Source: a cyanobacterium endosymbiont of Epithemia turgida isolate EtSB Lake Yunoko
Lineage (GTDB): Bacteria > Cyanobacteriota > Cyanobacteriia > Cyanobacteriales > Microcystaceae
Assembly: GCF_000829235.1 (NCBI RefSeq)
Contig: NZ_AP012549.1
Span: forward strand, 2,100,001-2,132,000
Direction: 5' to 3'
Length of the DNA stretch: 32,000 bases
In this document: positions 1,120-30,658 of the stretch, piece after piece
Layout of the letters: the number at the start of each line of letters is the position of its first letter
How positions within the stretch are numbered: position 1 is the stretch's first letter
Made by a program: the position numbers and the translations under genes
Notes under the pieces: generated by a model
What the model was told of the DNA's origin: nothing
What the model saw: only the letters and a program-made list of their open reading frames with translations
The model's database searches: none

Positions 1120-2586
1120 TTAGAACGTGACCTCCAGAATAGATAAGAGTTGATTGAGTAAATACCCCATTAAAAAGGCAAGTACAATAATAAAACTTGT
1201 CATAGCTAGAGTTATTTTGAGTCCGTGTTGTTTTAAAATTAATTGGAATTGAGTCAGACAAGGAATAAATAGAGTTAAGGTAACTGCCGCTACGATCAAT
1301 TGACGACCCATTAAAATACCTGAGCGATGAAGGTCAAACATAGCTGCAGCCCCATAGTCTCGACGAAAAAATCCGTAAAGAAAAATGCTGGAGGTTGAGG
1401 GAGGAAGTCCTAACCAAATCATAATTGGTTCTAACTCCTTGAGTAATATTTCAAAGAGTCCAGACAGTTTTCCTAGCCAAATTAATATTGATACTAAAAT
1501 AGATATGTGAATAATTTCCTTTAAATACCATAGAGTTCTTCCATAAGTTTTGCTTAAAATAGACTGAACCCTAGGCATCCTTAATGGGGGAATTTCTAGA
1601 TAAAAACAGGCACTATCGCCAGGTAGTATCTTGGCAGTTAATAACCCTACAATAACAAAGATAAAACTCATCGTTCCCACCCAAATAGTTAGAGCAGCAG
1701 GACTTTGAGACAGTAATCCCAAAATAACTCCTAATTGAGGCGAACAGGGAACAACTAAGGCTAATAATAGGGTAGCAATCACCCTTTCCCGTTTACTTTC
1801 TAGGGTACGGGTAACCAGAGTAGCCATTGTTCCACATCCTAATCCTAAAACTAGGGGAGTAATAGAACGTCCTGATAAACCTAAAGCTTTTAACAAGCGA
1901 TCAGCTAATAGAGAAAGTCGAGGTAAGTAGCCACTATCTTCCAGTAGAGAAAACATCAAAAAGAAAGTACTGACAATAGGGAAAATAATAGCGATAACAT
2001 ATCTTAATCCTAATGTAATAATACCATGTTCATTAGCAATCAAATTTTGCAAAATTGTCCAGGGTAAAAGAGTAGCAGTTATCTGATTAACCAGAGGGTT
2101 AATAGTTTTGGCAAAAAAAACTTCGAGATTACTTACCAATACTCCTACGCCAAAGTTACCAATAAATTGATATATTCCAAAATAAAAAATGATGATTGCT
2201 AAGGGAAAGCCCGTAATGGGATTCACAGTCAGCTGATGAAAAAATTCCTCACTTTCCTGGGATTTTTTCTTTATATTAACCACGGATGATTCTGCTATTT
2301 TCCTAGATAATTGATGGCGACTTTTTGCAACTACCAACACCAGAGGATCACTAAACTGAGATCTAACATAATCAATAACAGTTTTAATTTCTGAAAAACG
2401 GGGCTCTAGTTTTTTGGCTTTTTCCCAAAAAACGGGATCTCCTTGAATAAGTAATAGGGCTAAACTGCGCTTCGCAATTGGATATTTACACGAACTAGAA
2501 TACTTTTGATGACCTTGTGTCAGCAAGGATTCAATTCTTGTCAGCCCTTCTTCAATAGCTGTAGGATAGCGCAGGAGTGGTGACAT
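1120..2586 (-). CDS. feoB: Ferrous iron transporter FeoB, membrane (C-terminal) portion; separated from the G-domain by a frame change
   Basis: 488-aa polytopic ORF containing the FeoB core region GLGCGTMATLVTRTLESKRERVIATLLLALVVPCSPQLGV. It begins ...RYPTAIEEGLTRIE, which is what normally follows the FeoB G-domain. It overlaps the upstream fragment by 35 nt in a different frame. Confidence 0.8.
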   Translation of the reverse strand: MSPLLRYPTAIEEGLTRIESLLTQGHQKYSSSCKYPIAKRSLALLLIQGDPVFWEKAKKLEPRFSEIKTVIDYVRSQFSDPLVLVVAKSRHQLSRKIAESSVVNIKKKSQESEEFFHQLTVNPITGFPLAIIIFYFGIYQFIGNFGVGVLVSNLEVFFAKTINPLVNQITATLLPWTILQNLIANEHGIITLGLRYVIAIIFPIVSTFFLMFSLLEDSGYLPRLSLLADRLLKALGLSGRSITPLVLGLGCGTMATLVTRTLESKRERVIATLLLALVVPCSPQLGVILGLLSQSPAALTIWVGTMSFIFVIVGLLTAKILPGDSACFYLEIPPLRMPRVQSILSKTYGRTLWYLKEIIHISILVSILIWLGKLSGLFEILLKELEPIMIWLGLPPSTSSIFLYGFFRRDYGAAAMFDLHRSGILMGRQLIVAAVTLTLFIPCLTQFQLILKQHGLKITLAMTSFIIVLAFLMGYLLNQLLSILEVTF

Positions 2587-3184
2587 AATTACCGACCTTG
2601 GCTTTTAACGTTTCAATGCCTCTTTTTTGGTAGGCTGATAGGGTGACAACGGGGATACCGAGAGAGGCTTCTAATTGTTTTTCATTGACCCAAATTCCTA
2701 ATTTTTCAGCTTCATCAAGCATATTAACTGCTAATAAAACCGGGAGTTGAATTTCCATGAGTTGAAATGTCAAGGCTAACATTCGACTGAGATGTTTAGC
2801 ATCAATAACATGAATAACTAAATCAATCGATTCTGTTAATAGAAAATCTCGAGAACACTGTTCTTCTTCTGTCATGGGAATCAAAGAATACATCCCGGGA
2901 GTATCAATGATAGACACTGTTTGTCCAGCAATAACTGCCTGCCCTTTAAAAATTTCAACGGTTGTCCCAGGATAGTTGGAAACAGTTGTGTAACTATCTG
3001 TCAACAGGTTAAATAGAAGACTCTTTCCCACATTAGGAGAACCGACTAAAGCAATAGTAGCTCGAGTAGGGATTAAAGGGTTAGAGTATTTCTTGAACTG
3101 ATTTATTGTCCAAAAACGATCCCAGATAGCTGTCAATTTACCTGGGGATATTTGGCAAAAATCCCGACAGTGATTGCACGCCAT
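2552..3184 (-). CDS. feoB: Ferrous iron transporter FeoB, N-terminal GTPase domain fragment
   Basis: G1 GSPNVGKS, G2 GTTVE, G3 DTPG and G4 NMLD motifs are present in order. ATG start at 3184. It ends after ...GIETLKAKVGNYVTTPALSYSY, where the membrane domain continues in another frame. Confidence 0.8.
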   Translation of the reverse strand: MACNHCRDFCQISPGKLTAIWDRFWTINQFKKYSNPLIPTRATIALVGSPNVGKSLLFNLLTDSYTTVSNYPGTTVEIFKGQAVIAGQTVSIIDTPGMYSLIPMTEEEQCSRDFLLTESIDLVIHVIDAKHLSRMLALTFQLMEIQLPVLLAVNMLDEAEKLGIWVNEKQLEASLGIPVVTLSAYQKRGIETLKAKVGNYVTTPALSYSY

Positions 3185-15954: not shown

Positions 15955-16386
15955 TTATACAGAAACGACGACTAATTCTGGAAAGATATGATATTTGGAC
16001 TCAATTGTATTTTTGGGGTGGCTGCACTGCTCGCACGAGAACCACAGGCTTCTTTGAGAGTGACTTTGACTAACTCTAGATCAAATAAGTCTATAAATTA
16101 AGTCTACATCCCCTCCATCTTGTGCTAAGGCTGGCTTAACTTCTTCTTCAAGAGTCTTTTTAATAAAGGTGATTTTTTGCAGATTTGTTAAAAATGTGGT
16201 ATGGGCAATTTTGGACTTAGATATTGCAACTTCTATTGCTTCTACTGCTATGGTTTGTTCTTGCACAATTTCAGCTTCAGCTAAAATGTCATCTGTAATA
16301 GCCTCCCCCGACTTTTTCTTCGTAATCGTTCCCTGATTTCGAGGATTGTGAAAGAATTCCATGACTTTGTCCGTGTAGTCCAACAT
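15955..16386 (-). pseudogene. nifU: nifU remnant: internal deletion, frameshifts and loss of the CxxC motif
   Basis: The N-terminus MLDYTDKVMEFFHNPRNQG is joined directly to the C-terminal Nfu region LTNLQKITFIKKTLEEEVKPALAQDGGDVDL. A stop occurs at 16081. Homology continues in other frames (DLFDLELVKVTLKEACGSRASSAA, then ELVVVSV* ending at 15955). About 430 bp remain, against roughly 900 bp expected. Confidence 0.85.
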
Positions 16387-17777: not shown

Positions 17778-18217
17778 TTATTTGGTCTTGAGCCATTTTA
17801 ATGAAGTTTGGTAACGACTGAAGCAATCCTTCCAGTAATTCAGCATAAGCATACTAAAAGTTTCTATAGTAGCCTCGATAATAGCCACAAGTGGTAGAGT
17901 CAATGAGCAAGATACTTTTGTCGGAGAAGATAGCATTAGTTGGACATCTAACACTATAACGATGACAGATAACACATCCAGATATTTATGTTATAGCATA
18001 ACTCATGACACTACCCTTGTTTTATTTAGTTTTACCGGGTGTTGCCTAAGTTGGGTAAACAGCTATAATCTCGTGAAAATCCCGCACAGGGGGGAATATT
18101 GTAGTCATCGACGCAACTATAGCAGGTATTTGGAGCGTCATTATCGAATTGATGACCTGAAGTTACCGAGAAAACGCTAGAAGCTTCCACAGGAGTGCTC
18201 TTCATAGAATTCATCAT
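17778..18217 (-). pseudogene. fdxN: fdxN (2x[4Fe-4S] ferredoxin) remnant in two frames
   Basis: It occupies the nifB-nifS slot where fdxN sits in cyanobacteria. Fragment 18032..18217 retains NTCYSCVDDYNIPPCAGFSRDYSC but has lost the first CxxCxxC...CP cluster motif (it reads SSVFSVTSG) and two later Cys. Fragment 17778..17975, in another frame, ends NYWKDCFSRYQTSLKWL, like the FdxN tail. Confidence 0.7.
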
Positions 18218-18220
18218 TTA

Positions 18221-19672
18221 CTACAACACTCCCATTAATTCTTTAGACTTCATAAACTGCTCATAGAAATCTAGGGCTACTTTGTCGATAACATCGTAAG
18301 CTTCAAAAGGTTCTAACCCAGCCTTACGCAACTCTTTTTGAGGACAAAGACCAATCTTGGAAGCGAGCACTCCTTTGCAATCAGCAATAGCTTTGATGAT
18401 ATGTTCAAGAGTCGCTTCCTCTCCGTATCCAGCTTGACAATAATGGTCTACTTTGCGATGGGCTACGAATTTAACATCTGCACCATCAACTTCAAATATC
18501 TGAAATTCTTTAGCGTGACCAAAGTGTTGGTTTACTAATCGATTCCCTTTTGTTGCTACTGCTACAAGAATCTTAGGACCTTTTTTGAGTGTTTTAGCAG
18601 CTTTAGAGGCTTTTACTTCGGCGGTGAATTTTTCGATACCTTCGTGGACTTTCTGGCGGGCAGCTAAATCATATTCAGGCTTCATCTCGAGAAATTTATC
18701 TTTGGTGAATTCCTGAGAACGGTCTTCCCCTAAGAGTCCTACTGCATCTGCCCGACATTGACGACAGTGACGCATCATTCTCATGTTGCCAGAACAACTA
18801 TCTTGAACTGCTTTAAGTTCTTTGGGACTAGGACCGCGTTGTCCGGTCAAACCAAAGTGGGTACCATGTTCAGGCGCACTTATTAAAGGCATAATATTAT
18901 GAATAAATGCACCTTTAGAACGAATAACTTTGTTAACTTCTGCCAGGTGTTGGTCGTTAACTCCAGGAATCATAACCGAGTTAACTTTGCAAAGGATGTC
19001 TGCCTCTCTAAGGGCCTCTAGAGCCTCCATCTGTTTCTCGTGGAGAATTCTGACTCCTTCAATTCCCTTATAACGTTTGCGATTGTAACGCACCCAAGGA
19101 TAGATTTTTTCTCCAATCTCGGGATCAATCATATTAATAGTTAGGGTAACATGATCGATTTTCAATTCTTTGATTTTATCAATATACTCTGTCAACATCA
19201 AGCCGTTGCTTGACAAACATAATTTAATATCGGGGGCTTGCTCAGCTACTAGTTCAAAGGTACGGAAAGTATGTTTAGGATTCGCCAAGGGGTCGCCGGG
19301 ACCTGCAATACCCAGTACTGTCATTTGAGGAATCTTTCCAGCAATGACTAGAGCCTTGTGGGCGGCTTCTTCGGGGATTAGAACTTCACTAACTACTCCC
19401 GGACGGCTTTCGTTGGCGCAATCGTACTTGCGATTACAATAGTTACATTGAATGTTGCAAGCAGGGGCAACTGCCACGTGTAATCTTGCATAGTGATGGT
19501 GTGCGTCCTCACTATAGCAAGGGTGTTTAGCAATCCGTTCCTGAATGTTTTTAGGAACAACCTGAGAAGTAGAGGAGTCACAGCCACAAGGCCCAGAAGC
19601 TCTTGTGGTAGACAGGGTTGCTGTTTTGGTTGCCGATGAGTCAGAGTTAGTTAAACCAGTTGATTGTAACAT
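18221..19672 (-). CDS. nifB: FeMo-cofactor biosynthesis radical-SAM protein NifB (with C-terminal NifX-like domain)
   Basis: The radical-SAM motif [14 protein letters not shown] is present. 483 aa, ATG at 19672, first gene of the minus-strand unit. Confidence 0.97.
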
Positions 19673-19996
19673 CGAATTCCGTGGAGTAAGGGGTGGCTAA
19701 AAAATGACTTAAGAACATTTCTAAGAACATTTGGTGATTCAGTCACTTGCTGGAACTTATCACGACGATAGTCAAAAACGATGAATTTTCGTCCTTGGCA
19801 TCTATGCAAGTTATACCACTTCCTCTAGCAGTTCTTGATGCAGATGTCCGAGTTGGGATTTATTAAATTTATCACAAAGTACTCAAATACTGAAGCTCTC
19901 TCTACACACCAGGTTAGTACTTTTTGTGTTTTTTTTGGGGGTTATGGTCCTAGTATTTTTAGTATTGCGTATAGGTATTTTTTTTTGGGGATACGA

Positions 19997-20012
19997 GCAT
20001 TTATGCACTCAA
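19997..20012 (-). promoter_or_regulatory. 16-mer TTGAGTGCATAAATGC (read on the minus strand) upstream of nifB
   Basis: It is 15/16 identical to the plus-strand 16-mer at 20478-20493, oriented toward nifB, 325 nt upstream of its ATG, and part of an array of TTGAGTRYA motifs. Confidence 0.5.
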
Positions 20013-20477
20013 TGCAAAATCATTACCGGAGAAGGAGCTAGTAGTGTTTTGGGACAATTAAATTCTCCGTAATTTTTTTATGTTTTTGCACTCAAGTACC
20101 TTCTATCGAAAACAAAAGATAGTAAACTCTTTAGCAAAAATTAATATATTTTCTCTGCTTTGCTATTTTCTTCGTATGTTTAGGTCTTCTCCTATTTTTT
20201 CTTCACTCCTCTATTACAAAAGACTGGATGGAGTAAGCGTTATAAAGCTTTTCCAGTGTTATCACGGAATTCGATTCTGTATCTAAAGTAACACTTTTTT
20301 AAGGTAAAGCTGACATCAACTCATGTCTATCCTAACTTTTGTACATCAAAATCCTTAAATCCCTTATGAAATAAGGGATTTAACTGTTAACTAACGATCA
20401 ATTATTGAGTTCTTTAGATGAGGTCTTGAAATTTTCTTTCTATAGAGTTTAAATCCTTACTCTGATTGATGTTTAGA

Positions 20478-20493
20478 TTGAGTACATAAATGC
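20478..20493 (+). promoter_or_regulatory. 16-mer TTGAGTACATAAATGC upstream of cysE
   Basis: This is the mirror partner of 19997-20012. It is oriented toward cysE, 227 nt upstream of its ATG. A second related copy, TTGAGTACACAAAT, lies at 20605-20618. Confidence 0.5.
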
Positions 20494-20719
20494 TTTAACC
20501 CATATCTATAAATACATGAACAGTGTACCAAAAATAGTAGTACCCTATACTCAAAAAAAAAATAATAATGATGCAAATACTTATAATATAAAGGTTTTAA
20601 AACTTTGAGTACACAAATAATCAATGTTGATTAGATTGATTTACCCAGATTGTATTGGAGGGTTCAGGGTAACTTGGTATAAGCATAACAACTAGGTCTA
20701 TATAGAATCACGGAATTCA

Positions 20720-21451
20720 ATGTTTGGATCCATACCGCTTAGAGACAGCCGTTCTGAAAGTCGAGATAATTCTCTAAATGTCTCGGTAACGACTTTGTCG
20801 ACAGCTTCCCACCCGACTCAACTACCTTTGAAGGTTCTTTGGGAAGATTTTCAAATAATTTTTGCCCGTGATCCAGCTGCCCGCAACTGGCTGGAAGTGC
20901 TATATTGTTATCCAGGGTTGCACGCCCTAGTCTTACATCGTATTTCCCATTGGCTGTGGCATTATGGAGTGCCCTTTTTACCACGCTTTTTATCCCATTT
21001 AGGGAGATTTTTTACAGGTATTGAAATTCATCCAGGGGCGACTCTCGGACAAGGAGTATTCATCGACCACGGCATGGGGGTGGTTATTGGGGAAACTGCT
21101 GTTGTTGGTGATTATTGTCTAATTTATCAAGATGTTACCCTCGGCGGGACGGGGAAAGAACTTGGTAAACGTCATCCTACTCTCGGCAATAACGTGGTAG
21201 TGGGTGCAGGAGCTAAAGTTTTAGGGAATATTATCATTGGTGATTATGTTCGTATCGGAGCTGGTTCAATTGTTTTAAGAGATGTTCCCAGTGACTGTAC
21301 TGTAGTTGGTGTGCCGGGTCGTATTATTTCCCGCATTGGTCGTGACTGTCCCTTGGAACATAGCAAATTGCCGGATGTAGAAGCCCAAATTATTCGAAAC
21401 TTGTTGGACCGAATTGAGCGATTGGAACAAAAGATACAAAACCTATCCTAA
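20720..21451 (+). CDS. cysE: Serine O-acetyltransferase (nif-cluster CysE / NifP-like)
   Basis: Hexapeptide-repeat acetyltransferase with [33 protein letters not shown] and [31 protein letters not shown]. The first ~36 residues may be an over-extension; an in-frame TTG at 20828 is an alternative start. Confidence 0.9.
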
Positions 21452-21466
21452 CCCTATTCTACCATT

Positions 21467-21745
21467 ATGATTAGATCATCTCATCCCGACGCGTTAATCA
21501 GCCAAGTTGCGCAAGTTTCTCGATGTGAACGCTGGCTACTCCATCGGCGCCTTGAAGAGCTAATGATCCCTTGTTGGTGTCCCGATGACGGATCTTTGTG
21601 GGTAGAAATTCAACACGGCATTGATGCCATTCTTTTGCGCAGCACTGTCTACCAAACGAATGCCTCCCGTAGAGAATTAGTGGAGTGGCTTAGTCGCTGC
21701 TGGGAAGCACCTGACACTCCTTCTGCTCAATTCTACAATAGTTGA
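21467..21745 (+). CDS. Hypothetical small protein in the cysE-nifV unit (92 aa)
   Basis: ATG ORF 16 nt after cysE, with non-biased composition (...CERWLLHRRLEELMIPCWCPDDGSLWVEI...). I recognise no family with confidence. Confidence 0.55.
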   Translation: MIRSSHPDALISQVAQVSRCERWLLHRRLEELMIPCWCPDDGSLWVEIQHGIDAILLRSTVYQTNASRRELVEWLSRCWEAPDTPSAQFYNS

Positions 21746-21860
21746 GGATATTTTTTTCAACCTTGTCGCCTTTCCGTCTTGTTTTTTACGCCCTTAACTC
21801 GTTGAGACCTGGCTCCGCTGGCTGGCTGATTGTTGGATAACTAGTTGTTTTAGTGCTGTC

Positions 21861-22073
21861 ATGGAAAACCATTCAATCTCTAACGAATTTACTCAATTTT
21901 TACAACAAGAACTATCTCTTTCCTCCGATGACCTGGCGGTTGCTATAAACAATCGCAGACAACCAGGAGATCCTATTCCTATGTTGCTATGGCAATATGG
22001 GTTGATTTCTAGAGGACAACTTCAAAGAATTTGGGATTGGCTTGATGCTCAGATTCAATTCCAGTTCCCTTGA
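21861..22073 (+). CDS. Hypothetical small protein (70 aa), cyanobacterial DUF2949-like
   Basis: ATG ORF with PMLLWQYGLISRGQLQRIWDWLD. This resembles a small conserved cyanobacterial family, from memory only. Confidence 0.5.
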   Translation: MENHSISNEFTQFLQQELSLSSDDLAVAINNRRQPGDPIPMLLWQYGLISRGQLQRIWDWLDAQIQFQFP

Positions 22074-22124
22074 CTACCTACCATTGTAGCAAGTTCTTAC
22101 CTATAGTTGTCGAGACATTAAGCC

Positions 22125-23258
22125 ATGGATAAAACTTACATTAATGATACCACCCTCAGAGATGGAGAACAGGCAGCTGGTATTGTTTTCACTCCTGAAG
22201 AAAAAATATCTTTAGCTAGCTTGATGGATCTTATGGGTATTCCCGAATTGGAAGTAGGGATTCCGGCTATGGGAGGAAGTGAAGCGGAAGCTATTACGGC
22301 GATCACCCAGTTAGGTTTGAAGGCCGACTTATTAGGTTGGAATCGGGCAGTCCGCTCCGATGTGGAAGCTTCCCTTACTTGTGGACTCAAACGAGTTCAT
22401 ATCTCCGTTCCCGTGTCTGAGGTGCAAATTCAAACTAAGTTCAAGGGTGATCGCTTTCTAGTTTTTGCCTGTCTAGAGAACACCCTCAAATTTGCCCTGG
22501 ATAATGGTCTGTTTGTTTCTGTAGGAGCAGAAGATTCCTCTAGAGCTTCAGAAGAATTTTTGCTAGAGATTGCCAGCGCTGCTCAGGAATGGGGAGCATC
22601 TCGTTTTCGATTTTGCGATACGGTAGGTATTCTCAATCCTGTCACCACTACCCAAAAAGTTGGAAACTTAGTCAAAGAGTTATCAATTCCTGTAGAGATA
22701 CATACCCATAACGACTTTGGCTTGGCTACAGCTAATGCTTTAGCTGGACTCCAAGCGGGAGCTACTTCGGTAAATACTACCGTTAATGGGTTAGGAGAAC
22801 GTGCAGGAAATGCGGCTTTAGAAGAGATAATTATGTCTCTAAAGTACCTCTATCAGGTAGATTTAGGCGTTAATACTTGTTATTTAAGGGAATTATCTCA
22901 GTTAGTCATTGCTGCCTCGGGTCACACTCTTCCTCCTTGGAAAGCTATAGTAGGAGATAATGCCTTTGCCCATGAATCAGGTATCCACGCCCACGGAGTT
23001 CTTGAAAATCCCCAAACCTATGAACCTTTTTCCCCAGAGGAGATCGGTTGGCAAAGACAATTGGTTGTAGGTAAACATTCTGGACGACATCTAGTTGCTA
23101 ATTTGCTGAAACAACATGGCATTACTTTAGATCCTGAAGAAGCCCAATTTGTCTTAGATGCAGTGCGCAGTTTGTCAGTTCAGATGAAACGAAGTTTAAC
23201 AGTAGATGAATTACTTAATTTAGTACCTAATAGGAGAATATCTCATGGGATTATATAA
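22125..23258 (+). CDS. nifV: Homocitrate synthase NifV
   Basis: 377 aa with DTTLRDGEQ, HTHNDFGLATANALAG and HESGIH motifs of the HMGL/LeuA-like family. It precedes nifZ. Confidence 0.95.
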   Translation: MDKTYINDTTLRDGEQAAGIVFTPEEKISLASLMDLMGIPELEVGIPAMGGSEAEAITAITQLGLKADLLGWNRAVRSDVEASLTCGLKRVHISVPVSEVQIQTKFKGDRFLVFACLENTLKFALDNGLFVSVGAEDSSRASEEFLLEIASAAQEWGASRFRFCDTVGILNPVTTTQKVGNLVKELSIPVEIHTHNDFGLATANALAGLQAGATSVNTTVNGLGERAGNAALEEIIMSLKYLYQVDLGVNTCYLRELSQLVIAASGHTLPPWKAIVGDNAFAHESGIHAHGVLENPQTYEPFSPEEIGWQRQLVVGKHSGRHLVANLLKQHGITLDPEEAQFVLDAVRSLSVQMKRSLTVDELLNLVPNRRISHGII

Positions 23259-24604: not shown

Positions 24605-25009
24605 ATGGCTAATGTTATTTTTTATGAAAAACCCGGTTGTATTAACAATACAAAGCAAAAAAAACTCCTCCAGAAGGCAGGTCATACCCTGGATGTTCAT
24701 AACCTGTTAACAACCTCTTGGACTTTAGAAAGATTACGCCCGTTTTTTTGTAATCGACCTGTTCAAGAATGGTTTAACCCTACTGCACCTCGAATTAAGT
24801 CAGGGGAAATTGTTCCAAGACAATTAGACGAGAAAACAGCACTTGAATTAATGATAGCTGACCCTCTATTGATTCGTCGTCCTCTTATTCAAGTGGAAGA
24901 AGTTTTTCAGGTAGGATTTGATGTGGAACAAATCGACTCTTGGATTGGTTTAAATAGTTTAAGTCCAGAAATAGAGGATTTAGAAACTTGTCCTAATATT
25001 CACCAATAA
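24605..25009 (+). CDS. ArsC/Spx-family nitrogenase-associated protein
   Basis: The N-terminus FYEKPGCINNTKQKKLLQKAGH and LIRRPLIQV are typical of the ArsC-fold nitrogenase-associated subfamily. It is the last gene of the plus-strand nif unit. Confidence 0.7.
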   Translation: MANVIFYEKPGCINNTKQKKLLQKAGHTLDVHNLLTTSWTLERLRPFFCNRPVQEWFNPTAPRIKSGEIVPRQLDEKTALELMIADPLLIRRPLIQVEEVFQVGFDVEQIDSWIGLNSLSPEIEDLETCPNIHQ

Positions 25010-25030
25010 TTAATTATTGAAAAAGCTATT

Positions 25031-25060
25031 AGAGATGTAAATTAGCACATCTCTTTTATT
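25031..25060 (+). terminator. Rho-independent terminator of the cysE-nifVZT unit
   Basis: A perfect 8-bp stem AGAGATGT (25031-25038) / ACATCTCT (25047-25054) with an 8-nt loop, followed by TTTATT. It lies 22 nt after the stop at 25009. Confidence 0.7.
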
Positions 25061-25162
25061 CTTAAAAGAAGAAAAATATAAACAGTCCAATAAATTCAAA
25101 ATAATTGAGAAGAAAATGACAGGTTTAAGGGAATTAATAATATATTTTTTCAAACTTTATGC

Positions 25163-25197
25163 TAATATATGATTATATGTAATATAATCATATATTA
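25163..25197. repeat. Perfect 16-bp inverted repeat with a 3-nt spacer
   Basis: TAATATATGATTATAT (25163-25178), gta, ATATAATCATATATTA (25182-25197). Confidence 0.9.
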
Positions 25198-26430
25198 CGA
25201 TATTTTCTGCTATGATCGTTCGTGTATTATATGAATTTGTTGGGAATAAATTTAAGAACTTAAAAGCTACTGAGCTAGCTGTAAAACAATTTTAATAAAA
25301 ATCGATAAAAATCTAGCTTCATATAGGTTTTCAAAACTCAACGATCTAGTTCTATATGAGCCGAGGTTTTGAGATCGTAGGGTGCAGTTAAAATAAGAGG
25401 TTTTCAAATTATTAAGATACTAATTTATTATTATCACTCTAAACAACATAGAAATCTAAATAGATAATTATAGAACAACTCAACGAAATAAAGTTGAACA
25501 AGTTTAAGAATAACTATAGGTTTTGTTAAATTTCAGAAAAATAAATTTTAAAATTATGTTGAACTATTTAAATATTAAGTTTATATAAAAAAAGCTTCTT
25601 AATAAGAAAATACATAATAGCGGTGCTAAACAATAAAAGTTTGTCAGTACTGTTATTGATATTAAATATTTAAAGTTGTGACGCTAAAATAATGTTTTAA
25701 ATTAGTAGATAATATTCGCCTTATAAAGTTTATTTTCTTACTCTTTACATTAGTCATTATCTACCAATTTTTTAAAAGAAATAACTAACGATAAAATCTT
25801 TTATGATAGATTATTAATTCCGCATTTATATCAGGAGCACCATCGTAATATAAATTTTGTTCAACGATTGTTGTCTCTTTTAAAACTTCTGTTTATTCTA
25901 CGTTAAGAAACATTAGACTAGTAGCAGCAATGATATAGTTGTTGCGGAGGTTAATAATCTAAGTAGTAGTCACTAACATAGTGAGTTATTCCTCTTTCTT
26001 TAATTACTTTCATCTTATAAAAAGTTTCAGGATAATGTAAATCCCAAAATACTGGAAAAGTATTGAGTTTTACAATCTATTTAGGGGAAGTTATGTAGAA
26101 AATTTATCTAGTTTTAGATAATGTTAGTTACACTTAAAATAATTTTGTGTAATTCATTACATTATTATGAATTTTAACTATTTTTTTTATACTCCAAAAC
26201 ACATTATATAAACAATGACTACTAAGCTAAATTAGTAAATCCTATTTTAATGTTAGATTGAAGTGAAATAGATTGTTCAATGAAGTGTTATTTTTAAAAG
26301 AAGTTGGATTGCTCCTGAGTTCATCACCTGATTTAAACAATAATTTAATTCTTGTAACCGATTCAAGGTTAATAATTTAGTTCGGGAATCGTATAATTTA
26401 CCAATTATCAAAATCACTATTAAAACTTAG

Positions 26431-27132
26431 ATGTTGATCCCTCTGACTCACCAGGCACTTGATAAAATTATTCCCGCTATTGCAACGGGAGCACAATATG
26501 CATCTTGTTGGGGAAGAGCGCGAGACGTCTTAAGACGGTTATTAATTTCTGTGGTTGCTCTCACGATTTTCTGGTTAATTGGAAACCTCCTAGGTTCAGG
26601 AAGCGTAGCGATTAAACTTATTTTCGACATTATTGCTGGACTATATTGGCTGTGGAGTCCCATTTACTGGGCAAATTTACGCAACAGCAGTTATCGTCGC
26701 TTTCCTTATAGTGGATTTTGGCAAGGACGAGTATTAGATATCTATCTCACAGAAGAAATTGTTGGAGAAGAACAAACTGTCAATAAGCATGGAGAACTAG
26801 TCGTCATTGAAAACCGAGAACGGCGAATTAATCTCGAAGTTGGCGATGACGAACAGTTCAGGGCTAGGATAAAGGCTCCCCTTAAACGAGTTTATCAGGT
26901 CATTAACCCTGGAGATATAGCAGAAATAGTAGTTTTATCAAAACAGCCAGATCTAAGTCGAATTGATAAAATTACAGATGTTTATCTCCCACAACATAAT
27001 CTTTGGTTAGGAGAATATCCCTATTTACGAAGGGATGTTTTTACTCAAGTTAGTGATGAACTAGGGGCAGTTAAGGGTAAAAAAACATACCGAAGACACC
27101 ATCCTCATCGGGTTCAACAACGTAGAAGTTAG
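26431..27132 (+). CDS. Conserved hypothetical membrane protein (233 aa; N-terminal TM segments, basic C-terminus)
   Basis: ATG ORF with two or three hydrophobic helices followed by a soluble domain. No motif recognised. Confidence 0.6.
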   Translation: MLIPLTHQALDKIIPAIATGAQYASCWGRARDVLRRLLISVVALTIFWLIGNLLGSGSVAIKLIFDIIAGLYWLWSPIYWANLRNSSYRRFPYSGFWQGRVLDIYLTEEIVGEEQTVNKHGELVVIENRERRINLEVGDDEQFRARIKAPLKRVYQVINPGDIAEIVVLSKQPDLSRIDKITDVYLPQHNLWLGEYPYLRRDVFTQVSDELGAVKGKKTYRRHHPHRVQQRRS

Positions 27133-29335: not shown

Positions 29336-29941
29336 CAATTTTTTAGGATTAAATTATGAGCAGAAAGATTATTTGGACACTCGATATTTATTCAAAATCA
29401 CAATTATCCAATTATTAATAAACCATAAGAGAATCTGCAGATGAATAATATATATATCAAAACTTGTAAAGATCAGAGAATACCTTCTGTATTCAGTCGT
29501 CCTATCCATGTTCCGAATCAATGGTTAAATTGACTGGCTTAAAACTTGCTTTTATCTAATTTCTTTTTTTCAAGATTGATAAGATGAGCTCCCTGTAACC
29601 TTATTACATGTTTAAGTGGTTAAGTGTGACAAAAAATACTACACAAGTTACATTAATTCCAGTAGTATATACTTTCTGAAAGTTGACAAGTTAGCGCTAA
29701 AAGTTATATTTTTTTAACTTTATTTTACTTATTTGAGTTTTAATTAAAGAAGAATTACTTGAATCAAATTATTTTAAATTAGCTCCTGATCATTCTACTT
29801 CCGATAATATTTTCTTAGCTCATTACACTACTTTAAGCTTAATATTTTCAAAGGATTGGATAAAAAAAATTAATTTTGCAAAATATTGTTTTTATTTGTT
29901 TTAGTAAACGGTATATAAATAGGTTTAATTAATATGAATGA

Positions 29942-30658
29942 TCACCAATTAACTTGAGAAGTAATTTTTATTAACCAAGGATGTACCCACCAAAATAATT
30001 CCACAAAAATAAGAATTACTAGATAAGTTGGTTTTAAAAATTCATGTAATTTTAAAGTTTGACGACCCTCAATAATAGCTAAAAAAGGAATAATAGAAGT
30101 CCGTTTTTTAACATCCATAAAAACCTCTCCATAGTGTTTTTTGAGGCGATAATCTCCATGCCACACGGCGAATAGATGGTGAGCAACTAATCCTAATGAT
30201 GTCACCAAAGTAAAGGTAGTCCCTAGCCATATAGTATGAGTGATACACCAAATCACTTGACCAATCATTTGGGGATGGCGACAAATTCGAATAATACCTG
30301 TTTCATAAAGATAAACTTGGGGTTTAGAAATTGCGGCAATTTCCAGAAGATTAAAAGTAGCTGGATATAGAAACAAGAAAGATATAGCACTAAAAAGCCA
30401 AACGAAAGCTTTAACTCCCTGATATCTTTGAAATTGCCATAAAATAAAACCATCATAGCGATGATTAAAAAAGTAAGTAATTAAAATAATCGCCAGGGGA
30501 ATATTAACAAAGACAAACATAACACGATAAGGTCTCGGTCCAATTTTGTTTTCTCCCCAAGGACGCAATGCTGCTAGTCCACTATGGACAATAGCAAATC
30601 CCAAGAGTAACCCTAAAATAATTCCATGACTTGGTGTTAACCAGGTGGGTAAAGCCAT
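29942..30658 (-). CDS. NnrU-family membrane protein (related to the Z-ISO family)
   Basis: 238-aa polytopic ORF with NnrU-like segments (YRVMFVFVNIPLAIIL..., ICRHPQMIGQVIWCITHTIW, HHLFAVWHGDYRLKKHYGEVF). Confidence 0.7.
   Translation of the reverse strand: MALPTWLTPSHGIILGLLLGFAIVHSGLAALRPWGENKIGPRPYRVMFVFVNIPLAIILITYFFNHRYDGFILWQFQRYQGVKAFVWLFSAISFLFLYPATFNLLEIAAISKPQVYLYETGIIRICRHPQMIGQVIWCITHTIWLGTTFTLVTSLGLVAHHLFAVWHGDYRLKKHYGEVFMDVKKRTSIIPFLAIIEGRQTLKLHEFLKPTYLVILIFVELFWWVHPWLIKITSQVNW

Follow-up and report, generated by a model that had tools for sequence, protein, structure and literature searches.

The divergently transcribed nifB and cysE (nifP) genes of the cyanobacterial endosymbiont (diazoplast, also called spheroid body) of Epithemia turgida are separated by a 1047-bp spacer, and this region very probably represents two back-to-back upstream activating modules of the cyanobacterial nifB/nifP kind, that is, modules of the type associated with the activator CnfR (PatB). 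We analyzed the spacer within a window of 32,000 nucleotides (contig NZ_AP012549.1, positions 2,100,001 to 2,132,000), in which all coordinates below are counted from the first letter. Both modules are complete, and their architecture is specific to nif genes and to cyanobacteria. The gene names given to the two divergent units by an earlier, sequence-only reading of the window agree with family matches: nifB (18221-19672, minus strand; protein BAP18214.1) matches NCBIfam TIGR01290 with 655 bits, and cysE/nifP (20720-21451, plus strand) matches TIGR01172 with 249 bits.

Promoters of this design are known from Anabaena (Trichormus) variabilis ATCC 29413, upstream of nifB1, nifB2 and nifP (Thiel and Pratte 2014, PMC4284476; Pratte, Vernon and Thiel 2025, bioRxiv 10.1101/2025.04.01.646610), where three 8-bp TGAGTACA repeats (1A, 1B and 1C) are combined with A/C-rich elements 2A and 2B and with an extended -10 that has no -35; the same set occurs between nifB and nifP in Leptolyngbya boryana. 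These nif promoters need CnfR, which acts at low oxygen and under nitrogen limitation; mutations in the elements alter expression, and purified CnfR binds fragments bearing the region in vitro. The sequence-only reading had put forward an array of TTGAGTRYA motifs as a possible CnfR target. Since TGAGTACA is the published box of CnfR-dependent promoters, that motif is the known box and the link holds to this extent; the box, on the other hand, is not necessarily the site that CnfR contacts. Motif and CnfR link are already in the literature, and the spacer modules are no new kind of element.

Two mirrored modules between nifB and nifP

Seven TTGAGT sites lie in the 751-bp region 19870-20620, each at the position and on the strand given by the sequence-only reading. 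Their excess is pronounced: 2000 dinucleotide-preserving shuffles of the region yield 0.61 sites on average (0.84 for the whole intergenic region), and none of the shuffles reaches seven, while the 8-mer TGAGT[AG]CA is present in four copies against 0.04-0.05 expected from such shuffles. The seven sites had been taken as one array, of which only six are boxes. These six form two mirror-image triplets (1A, 1B, 1C) of the TGAGTACA box, one facing nifB and the other facing cysE (nifP); all fit the 8-mer at 6-8 of its 8 positions and keep a single orientation per side, toward the gene. The seventh site, the reversed copy TTGAGTATA (20546-20554), is a by-product of the nifP-side 2B repeat, whose 3' end (CCCTATACTCAAA) creates it and aligns to the CCcctaCCC.aAAA portion of the 2B consensus.

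On the nifB side, where all elements are read on the minus strand, box 1A (TGAGTGCA, 20087-20094) has the orientation of 1B, which it precedes by 83 bp, and aligns with other cyanobacterial 1A boxes. Box 1B (TGAGTGCA, 20004-20011) is embedded in the 16-mer TTGAGTGCATAAATGC (19997-20012); the box and its conserved tail fit the position-specific consensus TGAGTACAaAAAt.C...CCC. The A/C-rich repeats occupy 19937-20003, with unit III at 19987-20003, 2A at 19967-19981 and 2B at 19937-19959 as placed by the module alignment described below. Box 1C (TGAGTACT, 7/8 positions, 19878-19885), located 126 bp downstream of 1B and 213 nt short of the nifB ATG, is followed directly by GATAAATTTAATAAATCC (19856-19873), which fits the conserved TAATaAatc.AATAAAtt box. 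The extended -10, TGGTATAAC (19810-19818), fits the conserved cTG.TATAAa, and its hexamer starts 70 bp after 1C; it would place the start of transcription near 19803, giving a predicted 5' untranslated region (UTR) of about 131 nt. The three boxes thus start at 20094, 20011 and 19885 (spacings of 83 and 126 bp), or -422, -339 and -213 from the ATG, a geometry nearly that of Trichodesmium (-415, -342 and -213).

The nifP side repeats this order on the plus strand. Box 1A, TGAGTTCT (20406-20413), is degenerate (6/8) and precedes 1B by 73 bp; extended by one position to TTGAGTTCT (20405-20413), it has a TTGAGT core that is invariant in the window, in Crocosphaera and in two further loci of the comparison set (L017 and L018). 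Box 1B (TGAGTACA, 20479-20486) again lies in a 16-mer with its tail, TTGAGTACATAAATGC (20478-20493), and the A/C-rich repeats (20487-20552) comprise unit III (20487-20501), 2A (20509-20523) and 2B (20531-20552). Box 1C (TGAGTACA, 20606-20613) follows 127 bp after 1B, and the three boxes start at 20406, 20479 and 20606, with spacings of 73 and 127 bp. The TAAT box of this side, AATAATCAATGTTGATTAG (20616-20634), is divergent and aligns to the TAAT..AATAAAT consensus. The hexamer of the extended -10, TGGTATAAG (20675-20683), starts 72 bp after 1C, and transcription would begin at about 20690, some 30 nt before the ATG, in agreement with the mapped A. variabilis nifP start at -33/-34.

The two 16-mers are 15/16 identical, a single base differing; 325 nt separate the first from the nifB ATG (19672) and 227 nt the second from the cysE ATG (20720), as the sequence-only reading had measured. 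Its proposal that they constitute a shared activator site, however, gives way to two complete back-to-back modules, each with its own 1A, 1B and 1C boxes and its own extended -10. Each 16-mer is box 1B fused to the first AAATGC unit; since it is present once per module, its two copies face outward.

Architecture and spacing across cyanobacteria

To place the spacer among its relatives, we gathered 80 nifB loci with a NifB query. Of these, 50 are from cyanobacteria, while the other 30, from proteobacteria and further phyla, served as controls. The 8-mer TGAGT[AG]CA is nearly confined to the 1.5 kb upstream of cyanobacterial nifB, where there are typically three nifB-oriented copies and often three more mirrored toward nifP; a locus from the Leptolyngbyaceae (L040) carries both mirrored triplets. 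When triplets were sought with a first spacing of 65-90 bp and a second of 105-135 bp, they were found upstream of nifB in most of the 50 cyanobacterial loci (70-75 or 83 bp, then 114-129 bp) and in 0/30 non-cyanobacterial ones. Orthologous cyanobacterial loci share the motif, and in the different cyanobacterial orders the boxes keep their placement and direction with respect to nifB and nifP.

The conserved module around each window triplet measures about 290 bp. When 49 modules were aligned with MAFFT from 1B to beyond the promoter, the order that emerged was 1B, three AAATAC(T)nG(T)ACCcc units, an A- or A/T-tract, 1C, the TAAT box and cTG.TATAAa. Alignments anchored on the boxes show per-position signatures: aAAAt.C...CCC after 1B, and agggTTT before and TAATaAatc.AATAAAtt after 1C. 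A GTAC-like core is common to all sub-elements. The 2A and 2B units of the window align to the consensus AAATACTnGTACCcc units, 2A being degenerate on both sides, and in both window modules the AAAT(A/G)C units begin at +9, +31 and +53 from 1B, a 22-bp phase that corresponds to two helical turns.

An nhmmer profile of the segment from 1B to the -10, built from the 47 modules outside the window, matches the window exactly twice: at 20020-19810 on the minus strand (E 3e-22, full length) and at 20471-20625 on the plus strand (E 4e-15), the latter match stopping within the divergent nifP TAAT box. The same profile matches 48/50 cyanobacterial loci and 0/30 controls. Its two misses are a locus with only 49 bp upstream of nifB (L046) and one in which about 1.2 kb lies upstream of a match that starts at NifB residue 73 (L049).

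The spacing between the elements falls into discrete classes. In the 47 reference modules, 1A and 1B are separated by 70-75 bp in 45 cases and by 83 bp in two, and the window contains both values (73 bp toward nifP, 83 bp toward nifB). From 1B to 1C, 23 modules measure 114-117 bp, another 23 measure 126-129 bp and one has 120 bp; the step from 1C to the -10 hexamer takes 68-72 bp in all but one of the 47, a range that includes both window values. The length classes are about 11 bp apart and the responsible indel is located just after the A-tract, so that helical phase is preserved. On the strength of these alignments we infer a helical-phase rule for the spacers, which the papers that we consulted on these promoters were not found to state; the roughly 11-bp classes constrain models of how the activator array assembles. 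None of this geometry involves a -35: no conserved -35 is present in the modules, and a simple sigma-70 scan found no canonical pair at either predicted promoter, a result of the missing -35 and of the C or G with which both promoters end.

The window modules resemble the A. variabilis system in their three TGAGTACA boxes, in the placement of 2A and 2B between 1B and 1C and in an extended -10 without a -35, as well as in a nifP start (about 33 nt before the ATG in that CnfR-dependent system) close to the one predicted here. They differ in that nifP is unlinked to nifB in A. variabilis, whereas the window has both modules back to back in one spacer, and in that four of the six boxes are variants and the host is an obligate diatom endosymbiont, known here from its sequence. 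Work by Vernon et al. (2017) is said to be a further source on the upstream regions of nifB1, nifB2 and nifP in A. variabilis. The nifB 5' UTR of that organism is long (start at -328), in contrast to the approximately 131 nt predicted for the window. Within this predicted UTR, we also observed a tandem exact repeat (two copies of TAAGAACATTT with a 1-nt spacer, 19710-19732), which is kept in three of four Epithemia endosymbiont sequences; in the fourth (L081), the second copy carries one substitution.

In layout the window resembles L. boryana, where nifB and nifP are likewise divergent with, reportedly, one module per promoter (Tsujimoto, Kamiya and Fujita 2016, Mol Microbiol 101:411). The cis-acting elements I-VII of that study correspond to the present ones as I-II = 1B, IV-V = 2A and VI-VII = 2B, a correspondence that was drawn, element by element, from papers citing the study.

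Proposed CnfR-type control and its alternatives

We propose that leftward transcription of the nifB operon would be driven by one module, and rightward transcription of cysE (nifP) and its downstream genes by the other. By analogy with Leptolyngbya, Anabaena and Nostoc, the Fe-S-containing CnfR would occupy this array at low levels of oxygen and fixed nitrogen. The promoter, without a -35, would be inefficient for RNA polymerase on its own; CnfR would recruit or stabilize the polymerase at the extended -10, and both divergent units would be switched on together. Spacer-length steps of about 11 bp keep the sites on the same side of the helix, as would be expected if proteins bound to boxes and repeats had to be aligned with respect to the promoter, and suggest a multi-site and possibly bent nucleoprotein complex. 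For this endosymbiont, the binding of CnfR, the positions at which transcription starts and the geometry of a bent complex are predictions. A functional analogue exists in proteobacterial nif regulation, where NifA, an oxygen- and nitrogen-responsive activator, works from upstream activating sequences (TGT-N10-ACA) 100-300 bp upstream, under face-of-helix constraints, on sigma-54 promoters that are unable to fire unaided. The NifA/sigma-54 system shares neither sequence nor protein homology with the window modules, and the window promoters are of the sigma-70 extended -10 type, as opposed to the -24/-12 type.

Constraint on the modules was examined in four Epithemia endosymbiont spacers (the window, the E. 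adnata endosymbiont and two metagenomic relatives), which are 91-97% identical. The six boxes contain 0/48 variable positions against 91/808 (11%) outside the elements (Fisher p 0.007, an approximate value given that the sequences are related), and the two -10 elements contain 0/18. The TAAT units vary at about the background rate.

Several observations weigh against this assignment. The two window modules score low on the profile (77 and 54 bits), although Crocosphaera is comparable (50-108 bits). Departures from TGAGTACA are seen in four of the six boxes (TGAGTGCA twice, TGAGTACT and TGAGTTCT), both 2A units are without the CCCC run, and units III, 2A and 2B vary at about the background rate among the endosymbionts. 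The constraint test is itself weak, because the four sequences are so closely related. Neither a cnfR-sized open reading frame (ORF) nor a cnfR match is present within the 32-kb window; a search of the 50 cyanobacterial nifB loci for a cnfR-like ORF that could serve as a query returned none. The role assigned to CnfR in this endosymbiont rests on other cyanobacteria, and the TGAGTACA boxes may not be the CnfR contact, because altering the 1B equivalent in L. boryana is reported to have little effect.

This last point leads to the strongest competing explanation, in which a different protein, with an architectural or co-activating role, recognizes the TGAGTACA boxes, and CnfR contacts only the AAATAC...CC repeats 2A and 2B. 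We regard it as a serious possibility, though clearly the less probable one. In the L. boryana/Synechocystis reporter, changes in the A/C-rich 2A or 2B reportedly abolish activation by CnfR, making both essential, while the 1B equivalent is dispensable. The effective motifs of A. variabilis nifP also differ from the nifB1 set, and the two classes of element evolve differently in the endosymbionts, the boxes being invariant and the repeats drifting at the background rate. On the other hand, loss of 1A or 1B in A. variabilis nifB1 cuts expression by about 50% each, and loss of both cuts it further; the GTAC-like core in all sub-elements means that one protein could read both classes; and no second factor is known, DevH showing no specific binding to the nifB promoter. 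The discordant effects of the elements in L. boryana and in A. variabilis nifB1 and nifP keep this alternative alive.

It is improbable, by comparison, that the modules are evolutionary leftovers and that nif transcription in the obligate endosymbiont no longer depends on them. Decay of neighboring genes would fit such a view. An internal deletion has reduced nifU (15958-16386, minus strand) to the counterparts of residues 1-31 and 186-293 in Crocosphaera, and a premature stop limits the ORF to 101 aa, whereas other Epithemia endosymbionts have an intact short form of 137-143 aa; fdxN (17866-18130, minus strand) is a remnant that matches residues 1-45 only; and feoB (1120-3184, minus strand) is split into two ORFs. 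Several boxes are degenerate, and 2A, 2B and III drift as noted above. Yet neither the six boxes nor the two -10 elements vary among the four endosymbionts, against 11% variation in the spacer; spacing and phase are intact, and the modules of free-living Crocosphaera score no better on the profile. Moreover, a sister diazoplast, that of E. clementina, retains in its genome a nitrogen-responsive cnfR, which goes down by 58% on ammonium repletion (PMC10103950).

Two CnfR-type modules remain the reading that we favor, and what they imply concerns the endosymbiont. An obligate, non-photosynthetic, N2-fixing diatom endosymbiont keeps both promoter modules complete, and the persistence of boxes, phasing and -10 elements despite the decay of nifU, fdxN and feoB points to nif transcription that is still controlled inside the endosymbiont, which fits both the retention and the nitrogen response of cnfR in the sister diazoplast. 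In the literature that we searched, no description of a CnfR-type module in a diatom endosymbiont was found. The exact coordinates are now usable for reporter and footprint experiments, for 5' end mapping and for the engineering of nif clusters.

That the 16-mer or the hexamer is instead a dispersed repeat or mobile element, or an AT-rich chance cluster, is hardly credible: the module profile finds nothing else in the 32 kb with filters off and E up to 100, the boxes keep their position and orientation across cyanobacterial orders, and shuffling never produced seven sites. The 14-mer (allowing up to 2 mismatches) is confined, in a scan of the window, to the nifB-cysE intergenic region and one nifV site, and the 8-mer has just two copies in the window outside the intergenic region, which is about background. 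The sequence-only reading had named two outcomes that would undo it, a motif not shared by orthologous loci and a 16-mer dispersed irrespective of nif genes; neither is seen, the second as far as a 32-kb window can show. What speaks for a repeat or for chance is the hexamer itself, together with a second cluster at 1041-1444. The sequence-only reading had described TTGAGT as near background elsewhere in the window, which is only roughly right, as the remaining 31 kb contain 37 sites (1.18/kb against about 0.71/kb expected, an approximately 1.7-fold excess), where about 22 would be expected for the entire window. An exact 16-mer scan of metagenomes returned 120 single, isolated matches, and 0/80 of those fetched were accompanied by a module, nifB or cysE; these matches are at chance level for a very large collection and are uninformative on dispersal in this genome.

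A second cluster of six TTGAGT sites at 1041-1444 was considered as a third module and rejected, its flanks being unrelated and the profile giving no match there even at E up to 100. The six sites sit in the 3' part of feoB and an adjoining small ORF, and three of the four feoB-internal sites that were checked share one codon phase; the cluster is most likely coding-related or due to chance.

The central block and other features of the window

Between the two modules, the spacer is unalignable except for one stretch, CCAGTGTTATCACGGAATTCGATTCTGTATC (20253-20283, plus strand), which lies outside the CnfR-type modules and is the best-conserved sequence between them. This 31-mer is conserved in six loci (the window, the three Crocosphaera loci L001-L003, L017 and L018), with 0-3 mismatches to the 31-mer of the first Crocosphaera locus, and contains an imperfect palindrome, ACGGAAT-N3-ATTCTGT. 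The left part, or core, of the block, CACGGAATTC(R)AT, recurs exactly over both start codons, in the window (nifB, 19671-19683, minus strand; nifP, 20709-20721, plus strand) as in Crocosphaera. The exact start-codon box is confined to Crocosphaera-like loci together with L017 and L018, and weak versions with 2 mismatches are found in two others (L042 and L048). It is conceivable, if rather doubtful at present, that the spacer holds in this block a third and undescribed control element specific to the Crocosphaera/diazoplast clade; such an element could be an operator, or an RNA-level target, of a regulator that couples both operons. With regard to RNA, Rfam gave no match in 19400-22300, and the consensus fold of the central block has only invariant or weak pairs (-6.5 kcal/mol), giving no support for a structured RNA.

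Read by eye, the alignment also suggests an imperfect, NtcA-like GTA-N8-AAC box directly after the central block, in the window (within 20279-20320) and in L001-L003 and L017. In Crocosphaera and L017, TTTGCTAT/TTTGCTAG (TGnTAT, -10-like) comes next; its hexamer lies 29.5 bp from the centre of the box, an offset equal to canonical NtcA class II spacing. The -10-like hexamer appears eroded in the Epithemia endosymbionts (CATCAA). Taken together, box and -10 in the free-living relatives would point to a mid-spacer promoter under nitrogen control.

Farther toward nifP, between the central block and box 1A, lies a perfect 13-bp inverted repeat, TTAAATCCCTTAT-gaa-ATAAGGGATTTAA (20355-20383). A compensatory double change is seen in the E. 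adnata endosymbiont (C to G in the left arm, G to C in the right), and two other relatives differ in the loop only; the palindrome is not alignable in Crocosphaera and has neither a match in the Rfam scan of 19400-22300 nor a convincing RNA fold.

To the right of the nif genes, two AT-rich stretches (25000-26500 and 29500-30000) have a guanine-plus-cytosine fraction of 0.24-0.27 against about 0.40 elsewhere and no ORF of at least 80 aa. That length was also the cut-off of the ORF listing, below which falls a 70-aa ORF of the DUF2949 family (21863-22075, plus strand), located between an Asr1405-family gene and nifV. The start region of this ORF, TTAGTGCTGTCATGGAAAACCATTCAATCTC, overlaps its ATG and resembles the central block of the nifB-nifP spacer.

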